Virus record (IMG/VR): IMGVR_UViG_2711768034_000010
DNA from: a virus
Lineage: Duplodnaviria; Heunggongvirae; Uroviricota; Caudoviricetes
Length of the DNA stretch: 12,525 nucleotides
Direction: 5' to 3' (one strand)
Shown: positions 744 through 6,867 of the stretch, piece after piece
How the letters are laid out: each line of letters opens with the position of its first letter
Position numbering within the stretch: position 1 is the stretch's first letter
Translations under genes and position numbers: made by a program
Notes under the pieces: model-generated
Told to the model about the DNA's origin: nothing
What the model saw: only the letters and a program-made list of their open reading frames with translations
Databases searched by the model: none

Positions 744-956
744 TCAAGTCGCCGGGAGGTACTTGTAGATTGTTTTCACGTCCACGCCTGTCACATCAGC
801 CACCTGCTGCCGGGTAGCGCCGTTCTCCAGCATTCTGCGGCACCGCTCCACCACTTCTTCAGTCATTATCCGGCGGCGGCCGCCGACTCTCTCCTGCTCC
901 ATCGCTGCGGACCGACTCGGATGCATTCGGCAAATTCTAGGCCGTGATTTTTCCAA
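744..956 (-). pseudogene. Serine recombinase (Hin/Gin/Pin-type) C-terminal HTH remnant; catalytic domain absent
   Basis: C-terminal 45 aa GGRRRIMTEEVVERCRRMLENGATRQQVADVTGVDVKTIYKYLPAT resemble the C-terminal HTH of DNA invertases (compare Gin ...GGRPRAINKHEQEQISRLLEKGHPRQQLAIIFGIGVSTLYRYFPAS). The ORF starts with TTG; an internal ATG at 902 would give 52 aa. No upstream resolvase catalytic domain in frame. Overlaps the 3' end of the 266-aa gene. Confidence 0.35.
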
Positions 957-1737
957 TCCTCTCCATCAGATATGCCAGGATGACATCCAGTGTGCTGGTC
1001 CCATATGCATATTTGCCGGGGAAAACCAAACATTCTGACAAAACGGATGTTAACGGAGACACTGAACCATTGCCTGCTCCGCCAATACTCATTTTTTGAG
1101 ACGGGCTATACGCTGGGATTGTATAGCCCGTCACTTGTCGGCTGGTCACTGCAGACTGATCTGACCGCTGGTATGCAATTGCATAGGATCCAGCAGCCTT
1201 GTTAGAGCACATAACTACAGCGCAGAATAAAGATTGCCCTATATTGTTAGGAGTAAATGCCAGATCGGCCTCGATCCCTCCATTCAGAAAAATCGGGAAT
1301 GAACCTGCTGACGTTGTACGAATGCCGACGCCATGAGGTGTGCTTTCCTGGGTTGCGATAACCGCTCTGTCCTGTGGCGTAGCCGGAAGCGCCCCACCTG
1401 GCAGCTGATAGATGAATGCAAAAGTATTGATGTTTGCGTCCATAACCACCGCCGTATCACCAGCCATGCCGGATGCACCGGAGAAATTAAGCCCCTGCAA
1501 AACAGAACCATTCAGCTTTGTGGATGGCTCGAGGGTCTCCAGTGACTTGAAAAGTCCGCCATCTAATCGGTTAGAGATAGCTACTACTTTTGCACCAGAC
1601 CCCATTTTTAGAAACTCTGTCTTCACTGGTGTCCATACTGATGGGGATAGTTCTGAGATCGCTTTCTCTGCCGCTGTTTGTGAGTACACAGGGAGTAAGG
1701 GGTTATTCAGTCCAGTTAGTGTGTAAATCAGTCTCAT
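937..1737 (-). CDS. Hypothetical protein (266 aa) translationally coupled downstream of the tail-type esterase gene; possibly tail-fibre associated
   Basis: ATG at 1737 lies 9 nt after the upstream stop, with GAGGA overlapping that stop (minus strand TGAGGATAAAAAATG). Long ORF with no antisense alternative of similar length. No family recognised. Confidence 0.55.
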   Translation of the reverse strand: MRLIYTLTGLNNPLLPVYSQTAAEKAISELSPSVWTPVKTEFLKMGSGAKVVAISNRLDGGLFKSLETLEPSTKLNGSVLQGLNFSGASGMAGDTAVVMDANINTFAFIYQLPGGALPATPQDRAVIATQESTPHGVGIRTTSAGSFPIFLNGGIEADLAFTPNNIGQSLFCAVVMCSNKAAGSYAIAYQRSDQSAVTSRQVTGYTIPAYSPSQKMSIGGAGNGSVSPLTSVLSECLVFPGKYAYGTSTLDVILAYLMERIGKITA

Positions 1738-1746
1738 TTTTTATCC

Positions 1747-3741
1747 TCAGAAAACGTTAATACGAAAAGCGGGGAGCCAGTCGTAAAGAGTCACGGATGT
1801 GTCATACACCCATATGATTCCAGCGGAAGATCGAACACACCCTCTTGCACCAAGAGTCCGCCCGGAAGGTTTTACAGATGCGCCGCTCTGAAGTGGGTTT
1901 TCTGCTGTCGCATAGGAAACGCGCCCAAAACGTCCAGAGGGGGCGGTCGCCAGGTTAATCAGCACGCCCTTGCCGTCCGAGCTGATCGCGATGCTCGATA
2001 TAGCAGGTGGAGCACCAGTCTCATCCGTGTAGCTAAAGCCGTAATTGGCCAGACCGGAGGTGTTGATCGTAGTCGTGTCCAGCACCAGGTTCGTATACGC
2101 TGGGACATTGATTTGTATCTGCGTGGGTGAGTTCCACACGAAACTGGTCGGAACCATCCCTGACCAGCCGCTCGTAAACCACTCCTGGAGAAGCGCTCTC
2201 GCCACAGCTGCTCCGCGCCGGTTCTGGCCCGCACACGTCAAGTGCAGACCGTCTGAAATAAAATCGTACTGGTACAAACTATTGACCAGCCTGAATTGCT
2301 CTTTTCCGTGCAATCGCGTCGACGCCAGTCGCGCGTACTGGCCTGTAAATGCACCATGCCCGTCATTGACATACCCCAGCTGGGTAATGGCGATAATCGG
2401 CGGTTCGTTTTGACCCGTTCTTGCGATGATGTCGCTGGTGATTTGTCTCTGGTACTGCCTCATCCGTGATTCATACATTCCTTCTCGTAATCCTGACCAG
2501 TCCTCGTCGGACTCTCCCTGCATCCAGTCAACGCAGAGAACAATCGGCAGCCAGCCGCGTGCTTTACAGGCCGTTACGCAGTCTTCGATTGAATCGAGCA
2601 GATACTGATATACCTGGTTACCCCGTTTCTGGTACTCGTAAGCCTGACCAGACTGCGCACATACGATTGATAGCGTGCGCGGCATGATTCCGGTAGCTGC
2701 AGCCATATCGCGAATGAAGGTGTTCGCGAGGCCGCTTGCGGCCGTTTCTTTATCTGTCCCACTTACTGCCTCAACCAGTGGCACCAGAGTAGTGCTGCGT
2801 GTCCCTGTACGCCTAACCCCGCCGCTGAGCATGAAAGCGTTATCAGGATATATCGGCGTTGCTGCGACAATGGTTTGATCGGCGTCAGGACAATATCCTC
2901 GAGCGTTGGATTGCCCAGCAGTCACAAAGATAAAACATACAGGCACTGTCTCTGAGTAGGGGTACACAGTAGACCCTGACAAATGAAGTCCATACTCAGG
3001 GAGCTGGTTGGCATCATCGTCGCCACCACCACCGCCATTTCCGTTATTAACAGCTACCAGGCCACCGTCTGAGTAAATCCAGTGCTTCCCACCAACCGTA
3101 TAAGCTTCAACGATCTGGTTTGTGGTTGAATCAACCGTCATCCGCCACACTTTTTCACCGCCAATAAACTGCGGTATAGAACCCTCCCGGCCCAGCGCAT
3201 AGAGTTCGGATTCTTGTTGGGTTAAAAGTTCGTAATATTTTCCGTCAGGACCGATTTGAATTAATCTGCCGCTTGTATTTAAAAATGGAGCCACGCGGGA
3301 AGTCTCCGGATCATATGCTGCCAGGGTCACGCTGTCTGGCGATACCTGGTATGCGTAGTCGTCACGAACCATCCGCCGTCCGGTTGGCTGCAGCGTTCCA
3401 GCGAGGTTGATATACTCATCGGCCAGAGAGCTTCCGTCCTGACTGCGGACATAGGTTGTTGAACCTGCCGGAATATTCGCAATATCCGCCTGCGCCGCCG
3501 CCAGCGTCATGTACTGCCGGCTGAGAGGGATCAGGTTTTGGCGGGCTTCATCAATAACAGCGTCGGTAGCAGCTGCCATTTTTTTAGTAGCCCCAATTAT
3601 CGTATCCTGGGCGTTACCAAAACGATCTATAAAAGTATCGCTTTCGCTGTTCAGGAAATCATCGTACGCCAGGGCGTTATCATTCAGATCCTTCATGCTA
3701 TTTGAAGGTCTTGGATTGCCGGTATTATATCTTTTGTCCAT
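1747..3741 (-). CDS. Large tail-type protein with central SGNH/SASA-like esterase domain (putative O-acetyl esterase tailspike or tail fibre)
   Basis: Long minus-strand ORF. Motif FVTAGQSNARGY (GQSN block I of sialate-O-acetylesterase-type SGNH hydrolases) and, about 220 aa later, FISDGLHLT (DxxH block V). Start chosen at ATG 3741 (AGGA 7 nt upstream); in-frame alternatives at 3759 and 3810. Confidence 0.65.
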   Translation of the reverse strand: MDKRYNTGNPRPSNSMKDLNDNALAYDDFLNSESDTFIDRFGNAQDTIIGATKKMAAATDAVIDEARQNLIPLSRQYMTLAAAQADIANIPAGSTTYVRSQDGSSLADEYINLAGTLQPTGRRMVRDDYAYQVSPDSVTLAAYDPETSRVAPFLNTSGRLIQIGPDGKYYELLTQQESELYALGREGSIPQFIGGEKVWRMTVDSTTNQIVEAYTVGGKHWIYSDGGLVAVNNGNGGGGGDDDANQLPEYGLHLSGSTVYPYSETVPVCFIFVTAGQSNARGYCPDADQTIVAATPIYPDNAFMLSGGVRRTGTRSTTLVPLVEAVSGTDKETAASGLANTFIRDMAAATGIMPRTLSIVCAQSGQAYEYQKRGNQVYQYLLDSIEDCVTACKARGWLPIVLCVDWMQGESDEDWSGLREGMYESRMRQYQRQITSDIIARTGQNEPPIIAITQLGYVNDGHGAFTGQYARLASTRLHGKEQFRLVNSLYQYDFISDGLHLTCAGQNRRGAAVARALLQEWFTSGWSGMVPTSFVWNSPTQIQINVPAYTNLVLDTTTINTSGLANYGFSYTDETGAPPAISSIAISSDGKGVLINLATAPSGRFGRVSYATAENPLQSGASVKPSGRTLGARGCVRSSAGIIWVYDTSVTLYDWLPAFRINVF

Positions 3742-3781
3742 ACCTGTTCCTGTCTTCATCTTTTCAATGAAGCAATTAAGA

Positions 3782-3810
3782 TTGACGCCCCGCCCCTTCA
3801 GGGCTAACAT
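3782..3810 (+). promoter_or_regulatory. Candidate sigma70 promoter for the regulator/acyltransferase operon
   Basis: TTGACG (3782-3787), 17-nt spacer, TAACAT (3805-3810), about 33 nt upstream of the ATG at 3843. Hexamer match by eye only. Confidence 0.3.
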
Positions 3811-3842
3811 CGCCTTACGTGTTTAAACGGTTAAATAAGAGA

Positions 3843-4106
3843 ATGATTTTAATAAATAAATACACCCCTCCAACGCAGGAAGATTTAGCCAGACTGAAAT
3901 CCGCACTAAATTACTCCGGAAACCAAATGGCAGGGCTCGCAGGTGTAGCCAGCGATAGCCAATGGCGGAAATACACTGGCGGAGAGAGCCCCAGGGTAAT
4001 GTCAAGACACATACTGTTTTATATTGCAGCTCAGCTTGTTCTGTCTGATGAGCAACTTAACAATGTAATAAATAAAATGCGCGATATTGGCGCGGAGATA
4101 AAATAA
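3843..4106 (+). CDS. Small HTH (XRE/Cro-like) protein, 87 aa, translationally coupled to the acyltransferase
   Basis: ATG at 3843 within an ORF opening at GTG 3819. Segment GNQMAGLAGVASDSQWRKYTGGESPRVMSRHILFYIAAQL has an HTH-like pattern. Stop TAA (4104-4106) overlaps the next ATG (4106-4108). Confidence 0.55.
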   Translation: MILINKYTPPTQEDLARLKSALNYSGNQMAGLAGVASDSQWRKYTGGESPRVMSRHILFYIAAQLVLSDEQLNNVINKMRDIGAEIK

Positions 4107-5197
4107 TGCTTGGCCTAATAAGGTTTTTTTTGGCATCGTGCGTCATTGCTTTTCACTTAACGGCTCGCATACCTGCACTTGGCAACTTTGCAGTGAATTG
4201 CTTCTATGTTATTAGTGGTTTTTTAATAACATACATTTTGCATGAAACATACAAGTTCAACTTCTCTATGTTTTGGAAAAATAGAATACTGAGGTTATTC
4301 CCGGCATATATATTTTTTCTCGTCATGGGCTTTCTTATTATAAAATTAATTCCATCCGCAAAGGAATTCCACTCAAACTGGACAGGCAATTTCTTACCTG
4401 GAGATTTATTAGGAAACCTCTTAATCTTCCCCTGGGCTTTCCTTTCTGATAATGCTGTAGCAAATCCATTCGGTGCCTTTTCATCCATTTATCACTTTGC
4501 TATTGATGGTAATAGATTCAGAATAGTCACATCATCATGGTCAGTGGGTGTTGAGATAACATGTTATTTTTTATTGTGGCTTTTCATAGCCCGAAATAAA
4601 TTTACAGCCATTACGTCGATTCTGCTTTCACTGCTTTATCATGCTTACGTATATGTAGTACACCATTCTTTTGATATGGCGTATTTCCCATTCCTTGCTG
4701 CAACACTTCCTTTTAGCATGGGTTCTCTGGGTTATTTTGCCCATAGAAAGTTCAAAGCTATGTATCTTTCTCCACACAAAGCTTTTTTAATAACATTTAT
4801 TTGCATCGGGATTTTTATTACCAATTGGCATTTATATACAATTAATTCATTAGGTCAGTACAACATAATACTTTACTACACCAATAATGTAATAGCATTG
4901 TTTACAACCCTGGTATTATTAAAAATAAAGACAAACATACATCTTGAGAAAATACTCAAGTGGTTTGGTGACCTGGCCTATCCAATTTTTCTTTGTCAAT
5001 ATTTTGGTGGATTTCTAGCATGGCTTGCTATTGGTGGTGAAAATCGTGGCTTATCCATCTTTTTATTAGGCTACCCAATATCAATTGCACTTGGGATCGT
5101 TTGTGTAATATTAATAGACAAGCCACTAATTAAAATTAGAGCAAAAATAAGGGCGGACGCTCAAAGCAAAAATAATCAGGAAAACTCTTCAAGGTAA
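4106..5197 (+). CDS. Acyltransferase family 3 integral membrane protein (O-antigen/glycan O-acetyltransferase type, Oac/OafA-like)
   Basis: 363-aa strongly hydrophobic ORF with N-terminal signature FYVISGFLITY typical of acyltransferase_3 proteins. AT-rich relative to flanks (17/60 G+C hand-counted at 4801-4860). Confidence 0.85.
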   Translation: MLGLIRFFLASCVIAFHLTARIPALGNFAVNCFYVISGFLITYILHETYKFNFSMFWKNRILRLFPAYIFFLVMGFLIIKLIPSAKEFHSNWTGNFLPGDLLGNLLIFPWAFLSDNAVANPFGAFSSIYHFAIDGNRFRIVTSSWSVGVEITCYFLLWLFIARNKFTAITSILLSLLYHAYVYVVHHSFDMAYFPFLAATLPFSMGSLGYFAHRKFKAMYLSPHKAFLITFICIGIFITNWHLYTINSLGQYNIILYYTNNVIALFTTLVLLKIKTNIHLEKILKWFGDLAYPIFLCQYFGGFLAWLAIGGENRGLSIFLLGYPISIALGIVCVILIDKPLIKIRAKIRADAQSKNNQENSSR

Positions 5198-6018
5198 ACT
5201 AAACCATTCGCTCCTTTTCCTGATGAATAGTTACCATTCCCCCCGGCACCACCTGAGCCGGGGAAACCGCCATCATCGCCAGAACTACCGAAGTGGCCAT
5301 TGCCACCCGTTGATGAAAATGCAGATCCTCCAGCCCCGCCAATAAAAGCATCAGAACCATAATACAGACCACCTTGAGATATTCCGCCAGTAATATTTAA
5401 AATGTTCCCGCCACTTCCGATACCTCCAGCAGGAACTGTAGCCCCGCCACCACTCCCTCCAGTAGCTGAGATTAAACTCCCGAACCTTGTATCACCACCA
5501 TTCCCGCCTTTAGACGAGACACCAGCAGCAACAGCACTGCCACCAGTACCTATCGTCACAGATATAGTTTCGTTATCAGAAATATTAAATAACCCTTCCG
5601 AAAATCCACCAGCACAACCTCCAGATGCGCCCACACTAACTGGAGCATTCTGGCCACCTCCCCCCGCTCCCCAAACTTTCACCCGCACTCTTTTCGTCCC
5701 TTTAGTTGGAGTGTAAGTCCCTGACTTAGTAAAGGTGACAATATTAAGCAGGCGACCGCCACCAATCGCTTTAAGAACCTGTGAATCATCATCAGGATCA
5801 AGCTCAAGCCCCGCGCCCTCAACAACGTTTATGTGAACCTCGGCCAGATCTGAGGATGGCCGGGGAACGGCCCGCAGTTGCTCAATAATCGCCGCTCTCG
5901 CTGCCTGCTGGAACTTGCGCCCTGTCTCGCTTACCAGATGCCTGCCTTTCAGCGGTCCCTTGCTCGGGGCGCGCCAGTAACTATTTACGCTCGGTGGAAA
6001 TGGTAAAGTCAGTTTCAT
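5176..6018 (-). CDS. Chimeric ORF: RusA-like N-terminus (about 45 aa) fused to a glycine-rich C-terminal region
   Basis: N-terminus MKLTLPFPPSVNSYWR...GRHLVSETGRKFQQAARAAI parallels RusA (ITLPWPPSNNRYYR...RTHVSAEGQAYRDNVARII), but RusA's catalytic Asp cluster is not found. The remainder is Gly-rich (VKVWGAGGGGQ..., GGSGGG...). Good SD (GGGGG) 7 nt before ATG 6018. The 3' end overlaps the convergent acyltransferase by 22 nt. Confidence 0.5.
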   Translation of the reverse strand: MKLTLPFPPSVNSYWRAPSKGPLKGRHLVSETGRKFQQAARAAIIEQLRAVPRPSSDLAEVHINVVEGAGLELDPDDDSQVLKAIGGGRLLNIVTFTKSGTYTPTKGTKRVRVKVWGAGGGGQNAPVSVGASGGCAGGFSEGLFNISDNETISVTIGTGGSAVAAGVSSKGGNGGDTRFGSLISATGGSGGGATVPAGGIGSGGNILNITGGISQGGLYYGSDAFIGGAGGSAFSSTGGNGHFGSSGDDGGFPGSGGAGGNGNYSSGKGANGLVYLEEFS

Positions 6019-6027
6019 TTAGCCCCC

Positions 6028-6867
6028 TTAAAGGATCGCTACAACGTCTTTTGCGACTTCCCGCGTACTGCTTTTGCAGGAGATCGAACGGCGCGCGTTG
6101 ATGAATTGCAGGTTAAAACCATGCTCCCGGTACAGGTCGAGAACCTTCGGTACAGATGAGTTAGAAATCACTACCCGAGCCCCACGGTGAAAGGCTGATA
6201 CGCATTGCTTCGCCAGGTCTACCTGGTTCTCCCAGTTAAAACCACCAGCGGCGTAGGCGGTGAATCCGGTTGTTCCCGGCATCGGTTCGTAAGGCGGATC
6301 GCAGTAAACCACATCCCCTTTCCCGGCCAGGCTGATTGTCCGGCGGTAATCAGCCGTCATGAATACGCAGTTATGCGCCATAGCCGCGAAGGCTTTCATC
6401 TCATCCATCGGGTAATACGGAGCCTTGTAGCCTCCCCAGCCCACATTGAACTTGTTCGCCTGGTTGTAGCGCATCAGACCATTGAAGCAATGCCGGTTGA
6501 GATACAGGAATGCAGCTGCGCGTTCAGTAGCATCCAGCGTCTGAGAGTTGAACTCGGAACGGATCAGCTCATAGCGCTCTGGTGACCGCATGTGCTCGAA
6601 CATCCAGCGGGCCTTCAATTCCACTTCATCCGGCACGACCGCTAACATCTGATACAGATTAATCAGGTCCGGGTTAACGTCCGCCAGCAGGTAATCTGCG
6701 TGCTTTTCGCTGTTCAGGAATACCGACCCACCACCAACGAATGGCTCTACACGAACTGCACCGGCCCTGCTCCACCAGGAACTGGCCGCGCTACAAGTTG
6801 CGACCTGCGGTATTGTGTTGATAAACTGTTCATGCGTTAGTAATCTCCACTGATAACGACACGCCAC
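6028..6867 (-). CDS. N6-adenine DNA methyltransferase, Dam (D12) family
   Basis: Motifs VEPFVGGGSVFLN (FxGxG AdoMet site), FLYLNRHCFNGLMRYN, VVYCDPPYEP (DPPY catalytic) and INARRSIS align with E. coli Dam from memory. Start is GTG at 6867, the only in-frame start before the FxGxG motif; the N-terminal 40 aa align poorly to Dam. Confidence 0.85.
   Translation of the reverse strand: MACRYQWRLLTHEQFINTIPQVATCSAASSWWSRAGAVRVEPFVGGGSVFLNSEKHADYLLADVNPDLINLYQMLAVVPDEVELKARWMFEHMRSPERYELIRSEFNSQTLDATERAAAFLYLNRHCFNGLMRYNQANKFNVGWGGYKAPYYPMDEMKAFAAMAHNCVFMTADYRRTISLAGKGDVVYCDPPYEPMPGTTGFTAYAAGGFNWENQVDLAKQCVSAFHRGARVVISNSSVPKVLDLYREHGFNLQFINARRSISCKSSTREVAKDVVAIL

Follow-up and report, generated by a model that had tools for sequence, protein, structure and literature searches.

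A short helix-turn-helix (HTH) gene directly in front of a gene for a putative glycan-modifying enzyme raises the question of what the small protein regulates. Such a pair lies at 3782-5197 on the plus strand of the IMG/VR virus record IMGVR_UViG_2711768034_000010 (Caudoviricetes), whose 12,525 nt are referred to here as the window, and it encodes an 87-aa HTH protein followed by a 363-aa membrane protein of the acyltransferase-3 (AT3) family. In the initial annotation of the window, made without database searches, the pair was described as a moron in which a regulator dedicated to the acyltransferase might make O-acetylation conditional. The analysis presented here argues for a different role. 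The region is probably a reduced form of a portable lysogenic-conversion cassette that would regulate itself and, by negative autoregulation, set the dose of the enzyme.

Anatomy of the gene pair

The HTH gene (3843-4106, plus strand) and the acyltransferase gene (4106-5197, plus strand) are two overlapping open reading frames (ORFs), as had been annotated. The TAA stop codon of the first (4104-4106) and the ATG start codon of the second (4106-4108) have base 4106 in common. The overlap had been given as ATAATG at 4104-4108; the overlap itself holds, and the coordinates need correction, since TAATG occupies 4104-4108 and ATAATG 4103-4108. Together with a GGAG ribosome-binding site (4094-4097), which is located inside the end of the HTH gene 8 nt upstream of the AT3 start codon, it forms a predicted coupling junction at 4094-4108 on the plus strand.

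The pair had also been called markedly AT-rich. This is true for the AT3 gene, with a G + C content of 0.351 (17 of 60 nt at 4801-4860), and not for the small gene (0.432); the intergenic region in front of it has 0.436. The flanking tail genes are GC-richer, as stated, with 0.527 and 0.521. The designation as a moron agrees with an arrangement of the lysogeny type on the strand opposite to the tail genes, with its own promoter and with close linkage of the HTH and enzyme genes.

The small ORF is a conserved HTH gene

The 87-aa ORF begins at the ATG at 3843, and M1 is invariant in the family. A 95-aa version starting from the GTG at 3819 was rejected, because no homologue supports it. The protein matches PHROG 20491 with an E-value of 2.4e-30, and 194 close homologues were found, nearly all of them 86-90 aa long and with a conserved start. 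Non-synonymous differences (pN 0.21-0.27) are much rarer than synonymous ones (pS 0.73-0.97, a range in which the synonymous sites of these diverged homologues are saturated), and the entropies of the three codon positions are 0.59, 0.36 and 1.51, with third positions reaching 3-4 times the second. A lack of conservation, which would have spoken against the annotation, was thus not observed, and the small ORF is a true gene under strong constraint. The window protein retains every residue that is invariant in the family.

The fold was modeled with AlphaFold2 (AF2). A first model from 30 close homologues was too poor, with a predicted local distance difference test score (pLDDT) of 59, and was replaced by one that was built after adding beta-proteobacterial relatives to the alignment. 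The final model has a pLDDT of 93.9 and five helices (residues 12-22, 26-33, 38-45, 55-66 and 69-82), with the helix 2-turn-helix 3 arrangement of the XRE/Cro-C1 proteins, so that the protein is indeed an HTH protein. It is a bare HTH domain without a sensor domain.

The closest structures found by Foldseek are the HTH domain of AcrIF24 (26% identity), Aca10, Aca1, a phage 186 regulator, HigA antitoxins, C.AhdI and CapH. Most of the best 50 PDB entries listed, C.EcoT38IS among them, are HTH proteins of the XRE type or further small phage regulators with an HTH, and a profile search of the PDB placed AcrIF24 at an E-value of 0.015. The closest solved structures are all small regulators of accessory operons. 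PADLOC gave a match for neither the 87-aa protein nor the acyltransferase. The small protein was filed as an XRE-fold protein below the sequence thresholds and, by analogy, we infer that it works like an anti-CRISPR-associated (Aca) regulator or a restriction-modification controller (C) protein while belonging to neither group.

A conserved promoter with a dyad in the spacer

The promoter of the pair (3782-3810, plus strand) is of the sigma-70 type and consists of the -35 element TTGACG (3782-3787), a 17-nt spacer and the -10 element TAACAT (3805-3810). It is present as annotated and agrees with the consensus at 9 of 12 positions. This consensus match alone is not above chance, with four promoter-like sites in 3400-5600 versus 6.7 expected; the promoter is credible because it is homologous to one that is conserved across the gene family. 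The family promoter has the form TTGACA-N2-3-TAGCACCAAAGGGGCTA-TTAT with the dyad TAGCACC-AAA-GGGGCTA and is conserved from Enterobacterales to Burkholderiales. The window promoter matches it in sequence and spacing, and a near-identical promoter of the window type was found in another Escherichia coli prophage slot (L302).

In the family, the 7-3-7 dyad fills the promoter spacer and overlaps the -10 element. The dyad of the window, CCGCCCC-TTC-AGGGCTA (3790-3806), is likewise located in the spacer, covers the first two -10 bases and is the partly degenerate, putative operator of the 87-aa protein. In a second lineage of E. coli the sequence is CTGCCCC-TTC-GGGGCTA, and beta-proteobacteria carry the enterobacterial dyad as its exact reverse complement. 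An interpretation of the dyad as an RNA hairpin was rejected, because it lies upstream of the predicted start, its A/C asymmetry would be a mismatch and it occurs as the reverse complement in beta-proteobacteria. A true hairpin, which follows a 57-aa gene in fuller copies of the module, has in contrast GNRA or UUCG loops and a T-run.

For the family comparison, about 170 loci encoding HTH relatives were fetched. In 81 loci of ~12 kb each, the dyad pattern was found a single time per locus, and without exception it lay upstream of the module. Three loci contain an additional, dyad-bearing copy of the promoter, located 3′ of the HTH gene and before the downstream ORF, referred to as cargo (L021 and L152, both at 6314-6330, and L036, at 6277-6293); the cargo there therefore owns a copy of the putatively regulated promoter. 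A scan of viral contigs revealed 119 exact dyad matches, of which 40 are in a promoter context, and in 36 of these 40 the HTH gene lies no more than 700 nt downstream. About 10 further matches show the same arrangement on the other strand, and the remainder are chance matches inside unrelated genes.

This distribution bears on the idea that the HTH protein acts mainly in trans, as an immunity-like repressor of related phages that superinfect, by regulating host lipopolysaccharide (LPS) genes or by activating its own operon, with the acyltransferase merely co-transcribed. The protein is weakly similar to the phage repressor RstR in NCBIfam (E-value 0.049), which would fit, as would the many loci without cargo, which require a role of the HTH protein beyond the dosing of an enzyme, and cross-recognition of similar dyads in related phages is conceivable. 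Nevertheless, within the ~12 kb around each gene, to which the search was confined, the dyad was found only at the promoter of the module or before its cargo, and a dyad inside the spacer and -10 element of a near-consensus promoter is typical of repression rather than of activation. A mainly trans-acting role is thus regarded as unlikely.

The same region was inspected for signs of conditional expression. The initial annotation had suggested that O-acetylation may be phase-variable or stress-responsive. A regulator encoded before a conversion gene could in principle integrate signals, and phase-variable O-antigen modification has precedents such as the gtr operons; the gtrABC operons, which vary in phase through Dam and OxyR, are also prophage-borne O-antigen modification modules expressed in the lysogen, as is putatively the case here. 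However, the intergenic region 3742-3842 (101 nt, with the start of the neighboring tail-fiber gene taken at 3741) contains no GATC and no OxyR-type arrangement, so that the GATC sites in OxyR half-sites that mark the gtr type are absent. No invertible repeats were found around the promoter, the T8 homopolymer at 4124-4131 (AT3 codons 7-9) has the same length in all 15 E. coli loci examined, and the 87-aa protein has no sensor domain. The gtrABC operons further differ in their enzymes and in that the regulator is here encoded within the cassette. Conditional control of this kind is hence very improbable, and the anatomy points to constitutive expression damped by autorepression, not to phase variation.

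The dyad tracks the recognition helix

In distant HTH subfamilies the position of the dyad is kept and both arms are altered symmetrically. The variant half-sites are TAGGCCC in the Bordetella phage IFTN8 and in Pseudomonas oryzihabitans, TAGACC in two Burkholderiaceae, TAGGCGG in PE067 and GTTCCC in phiE131. Base 4 of the half-site was compared with the residue two positions before the invariant tryptophan, at the start of helix 3. In the 105 distinct protein/dyad pairs compared, the partition is perfect, with His and A in 10 of 10, Ser, Asn or Gln and C in 85 of 85, and Arg and G in 10 of 10 pairs, these classes being phylogenetically non-independent. The window belongs to the C class, with Ser39 and the promoter-proximal half-site TAGCCCT.

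The dyad thus stays dyadic, is located in the non-transcribed spacer and tracks the recognition helix, as predicted for a cognate pair of repressor and operator. From this we infer that the 87-aa protein probably binds the promoter dyad as a sequence-specific regulator.

The HTH gene is constant and the cargo is interchangeable

The regulator had been thought to be dedicated to AT3 genes, with the question of whether it always accompanies them left to homology and synteny. The census of downstream genes does not bear this out. Among 44 distinct partners of the enterobacterial type, 22 are AT3 proteins and 9 are hexapeptide (LbH) acetyltransferases. GT25, Wzy_C, a WaaZ-type 3-deoxy-D-manno-oct-2-ulosonic acid (Kdo) transferase, DUF1796/DUF4214 and T5orf172 occur once each, and the rest, about a fifth, belong to no known family. 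In total, 31 of the 44 are acetyl- or acyltransferases, and three more are LPS enzymes. About a third of the enterobacterial-type loci (35 with at least 58% HTH identity) have no downstream gene at all, for instance a Klebsiella lambdoid prophage in which the module lies antisense between Q and the holin gene. Throughout the family, most acyltransferase cargo genes follow the HTH gene at a distance of -11 to +39 nt. The HTH gene is therefore the constant part of the module, and the payload is interchangeable and strongly enriched in surface-glycan enzymes.

The module is carried by temperate phages of gamma- and beta-proteobacteria. Salmonella prophages contain the HTH gene, an LbH acetyltransferase gene and a convergent HtrL gene beside tail-fiber genes, and in Burkholderia phages the HTH gene adjoins the tail fiber together with an SGNH hydrolase gene (phiE131) or an acetyltransferase gene (PE067). 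L095, a sister locus from E. coli, is homologous to the window up to 13 nt before the HTH stop codon and again from within the glycine-rich tail gene, which shows that the cargo and the tip of the tail protein were swapped together.

As a separate observation, four Citrobacter braakii loci (L164-L167) contain a cassette of the HTH gene and WaaZ (Kdo III transferase) with remnants of tail-fiber-assembly genes, fixed next to slp. The other flank differs by strain and is a CP4-57-like island, a mobilizable element, a P2-like prophage or a SIR2 island, and the slp site looks like an integration hot spot.

Most loci contain a further ORF just 5′ of the HTH gene, which encodes a 57-aa protein with an N-terminal coiled coil and a C-terminal transmembrane helix (PHROG 6330; e.g., L168:6787-6960 and L172:5790-5963). 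Neither Pfam nor PADLOC gave a match for it. Between this gene and the HTH gene there is a hairpin, GCCCC-GNRA/UUCG-GGGGC followed by a T-run, that looks like a leaky terminator. The 5′ untranslated region (5′UTR) of the full module forms a stem-loop, GGUAGCGN-loop-NCGCAGCC, followed by CCCGAAAGGA, which is highly conserved from Enterobacterales to Burkholderiales (L172:5737-5789, L168:6735-6786 and ~55 other loci); one of its pairs clearly covaries (GC 18, AU 11, CG 9). Neither the window cassette nor the full modules matched an Rfam family. In the window variant the 57-aa gene, the hairpin and the conserved leader are all missing. The 57-aa gene was lost repeatedly (in the window, in L124 and in L131/L136 compared with Serratia phage BZS1), and promoter, HTH gene and cargo remain.

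Since the 57-aa ORF is conserved in most loci, HigA-type antitoxins are among the structural neighbors of the HTH protein and the pair occurs without cargo in Klebsiella lambdoid prophages, the module could derive from a toxin-antitoxin-like or exclusion system, of which the window HTH gene would be an orphan that is irrelevant to the acyltransferase. The repeated loss of the 57-aa gene with persistence of the HTH gene does not fit well, as the loss of a toxin is plausible but the persistence of an orphan antitoxin is unexpected. The lack of Pfam and PADLOC matches to the 57-aa protein, the absence of any toxin family beside the HTH gene in the window and a gene order with a weak terminator hairpin between the genes, atypical of type II systems, also argue against this origin, to which a rather low probability is assigned.

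The cargo of the window is a stand-alone acyltransferase-3

The 363-aa protein matches the Pfam family Acyl_transf_3 (PF01757) with 57.2 bits versus a cutoff of 31 and an E-value of 1.8e-15, in agreement with its first annotation; residues 4-336 align to profile positions 6-323 of 326. It is assigned to PHROG 3333 (O-acetyltransferase). The AT3 family is characterized by the motifs R/K-X10-H in the first transmembrane segment and RXXR in the first cytoplasmic loop (PMC9558356), and the translation contains R6-X10-H17 and R60-I-L-R63. A crude hydropathy count gives at least 6 transmembrane segments, and the domain spans almost the whole protein. Pfam detected no second domain, such as a fused SGNH domain. 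On the basis of these profile and motif matches, the enzyme is a member of the acyltransferase-3 family, of the AT3-only type. A tblastn search of the phage collection (E-value ≤ 1e-5) matched only a Vibrio phage and two uncultured phages, and no Shigella or coliphage record in the collection.

The putative substrate is a surface glycan, most likely the LPS O-antigen or a related polysaccharide. The context is consistent with this, as the cassette is located beside a tail-fiber gene, the adjoining fiber has an esterase domain and LPS enzymes occur as alternative cargo. A pairing of acyltransferase and esterase fiber has also been discussed for BZS1; an obligatory functional link between the two was considered and rejected here, since in other E. 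coli strains the same cassette adjoins fibers with beta-helix, CotH-like or TolB-like distal parts; SGNH distal parts are found there as well.

Proposed mechanism

In the proposed mechanism, the near-consensus sigma-70 promoter at 3782-3810 would be active in the lysogen and give rise to a bicistronic mRNA that runs antisense to the tail genes. A dimer of the 87-aa XRE-type HTH protein would bind the 7-3-7 dyad at 3790-3806, in the spacer and -10 element, and repress its own promoter, so that the translationally coupled second gene would be kept at a low and steady level of expression. The AT3 membrane enzyme would then O-acetylate a surface glycan, and the acetylation would alter the receptor for the tail fibers of this phage family and for other phages.

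Several observations weigh against parts of this mechanism. Concerning the fold, the best Pfam model, HTH_31, reached 14.6 bits (E-value 0.04) versus a cutoff of 27, and an hhalign comparison with the HTH domains of 434, P22 and SinR gave a probability of 27% (E 7e-4), in register. Concerning the constraint on the protein, the substitutions within the E. coli clade are few and mostly non-synonymous (L096: pN 0.020, pS 0), and in a sister variant from E. coli (P0018) Trp41 and other invariant residues are lost, which hints at relaxed constraint. The operator of the window has three mismatches to TAGCNCCNNNGGNGCTA, with 5 of 7 positions kept in the distal arm CCGCCCC and 6 of 7 in the proximal arm; given this degenerate dyad, repression may be weak or lost in the window lineage. 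The phylogenetic non-independence of the specificity classes counts here as well. No canonical terminator was found 3′ of the AT3 gene. With regard to the substrate, it is to be considered that E. coli strains of the HS type are O9.

More tentatively, the interpretation can be extended to the whole family. The HTH gene and the dyad promoter, joined in full copies by the tail-anchored 57-aa protein and the structured leader, could form an uncharacterized, self-regulating expression chassis, which carries interchangeable receptor-modifying enzymes beside tail-fiber genes in temperate phages of beta- and gamma-proteobacteria. It would be analogous to acr-aca operons, and cargo and adjoining tail tip would sometimes be swapped together. 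This broader proposal is considered possible, with somewhat more doubt than confidence.

Comparison with known systems

The pairing itself had been regarded as unusual, but the module is widespread and was already noted in the Serratia phage vB_SspM_BZS1, where p24 (AT3), p25 (HTH) and p26 (C-terminal transmembrane segment) form a trio (Bujak et al., 2020; PMC7556043). According to these authors, p25-p26 pairs are always located next to acetyltransferase genes in Serratia prophages (PMC7556043). No other treatment of the HTH/acetyltransferase module was found in the literature that was searched. As in the window, the BZS1 genes occupy a slot between Mu-like tail genes on the opposite strand, divergent from a fiber gene with a putative deacetylase domain; the HTH proteins are of the same family (67% identity), AT3 is encoded downstream and the type of promoter and dyad is shared. 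By sequence and by its homologous promoter with a degenerate dyad, the window cassette belongs to this PHROG 20491/BZS1 p25-type module. Unlike the window, BZS1 has the 57-aa gene, the structured 5′UTR, the intergenic hairpin and a perfect dyad, and the two AT3 proteins are unrelated beyond the family level.

The Aca proteins and the HTH domain of AcrIF24 provide the closest solved structures and the best PDB sequence matches, a similarity that is borderline (E 0.015-0.02). They are likewise small HTH proteins beside interchangeable accessory genes in mobile elements. Aca proteins bind an inverted repeat in the strong promoter of their operon and thereby damp it. In contrast to an Aca operon, no anti-CRISPR gene is present in the module, whose partners are glycan-modifying enzymes or the 57-aa membrane protein, and the HTH gene comes before the cargo, not after it.

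C proteins such as C.AhdI are also small XRE-type HTH proteins that are encoded first and are often translationally coupled to the enzyme gene, and they autoregulate via a dyad at their own promoter. Here, there is no restriction enzyme, the operator differs from C-boxes in sequence and spacing, and no switch between activation and repression with two operators is evident.

The cargo resembles Oac/OacA of Sf6, OacB-D and Oac of phiV10, which are AT-rich, stand-alone AT3 genes of temperate phages with the R/K-X10-H and RXXR motifs, located near tail or integration genes and opposite to the structural genes. Unlike the cassette, these morons were not described with a leading HTH gene.

Prophage setting and neighboring genes

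In HS, PCN061 and other E. coli strains, the prophage from which the window derives has yodB on one side and tRNA-Ser(cga)/mtfA on the other. A megablast search found no near-identical sequenced phage. The cassette was detected in 32 of 5,426 genomes, in each case on an E. coli chromosome.

Upstream, a divergent tail-fiber gene (1747-3741, minus strand; PHROG 4201) carries a SASA/SGNH acetylesterase domain (Pfam SASA, E-value 1.8e-11). RefSeq places its start at window position 3741, in agreement with the PHROG alignments, 40 nt from the -35 element of the cassette; the longest possible ORF, of 687 aa and starting at 3810, was rejected by homology and the RefSeq annotation. The distal part of the fiber varies among strains with the same cassette. 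On the 3′ side of the fiber gene, a 266-aa ORF (937-1737, minus strand) has no match in Pfam, PHROG, NCBIfam or PADLOC, and its counterpart p28 in BZS1 was reported to be virion-associated by mass spectrometry.

Downstream, the 3′ end of the AT3 gene overlaps by 22 nt with a convergent gene (5176-6018, minus strand) for a glycine-rich tail protein (Pfam Gly_rich_2, PHROG 863). Residues 1-63 of this ORF are the RusA N-terminus (PHROG 34), joined to the C-terminal part of the tail protein. Homology to intact prophages stops at 5831, with a deletion junction near 5831/5832; in the intact arrangements of W21 and HS, the glycine-rich gene is followed by genes for YmfQ and baseplate J. A perfect 10-nt inverted repeat, ATCAGGAAAA ... 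TTTTCCTGAT, with a 30-nt loop (5175-5224) lies across the convergent 3′ ends of the AT3 and glycine-rich genes.

Because of the RusA/glycine-rich fusion and the lost head, tail and lysis genes, the window prophage is defective. The cassette might hence be a decaying, non-functional remnant, for which the degenerate dyad and the loss of invariant residues in the sister E. coli HTH variant could also be cited. On the other hand, neither ORF is disrupted in any of the 32 E. coli genomes with the cassette, where identity is 95-100%, the window HTH protein keeps the family-invariant residues and the acyltransferase its catalytic motifs, and the same cassette occurs in apparently intact prophages (W21). 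Decay to a non-functional state is accordingly judged improbable.

A second AT-rich island of the window (8373-9542, plus strand; G + C 0.35-0.40) encodes a 389-aa protein with a nuclease domain of the type I restriction HSDR_N type (PHROG 4225, endonuclease) and without a PADLOC match. A RacR-like repressor gene (7741-8217) is located upstream of it. The gene for the 389-aa protein may be a stand-alone defense or nuclease moron.

Significance

Phage-borne modification of the O-antigen or LPS shapes serotype, vaccine targets and phage host range. To our knowledge, the control of stand-alone conversion genes is mostly unknown outside the gtr operons. The pairing of an HTH gene with an acetyltransferase gene was known from BZS1, and the breadth of the cargo, the conserved promoter dyad, its covariation with the recognition helix and the reading as an Aca- or C-protein-like system appear to be new. 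The window itself, as a reduced copy in a defective prophage, is of modest significance.

If the proposed autoregulation holds, one pair of regulator and operator would control many glycan enzymes in prophages of Escherichia, Salmonella, Klebsiella, Citrobacter, Serratia, Burkholderia and Bordetella, and the covariation would amount to a simple specificity code between repressor and operator (His-A, Ser/Asn/Gln-C, Arg-G). The HTH gene with its dyad promoter would be a compact, autoregulated expression unit and could serve as a signature for new surface-modifying genes, as about one fifth of the cargo has no known family. If the module is indeed a chassis for such genes, the joint exchange of cargo and tail tip would link the binding of the phage to the disguise of the lysogen.

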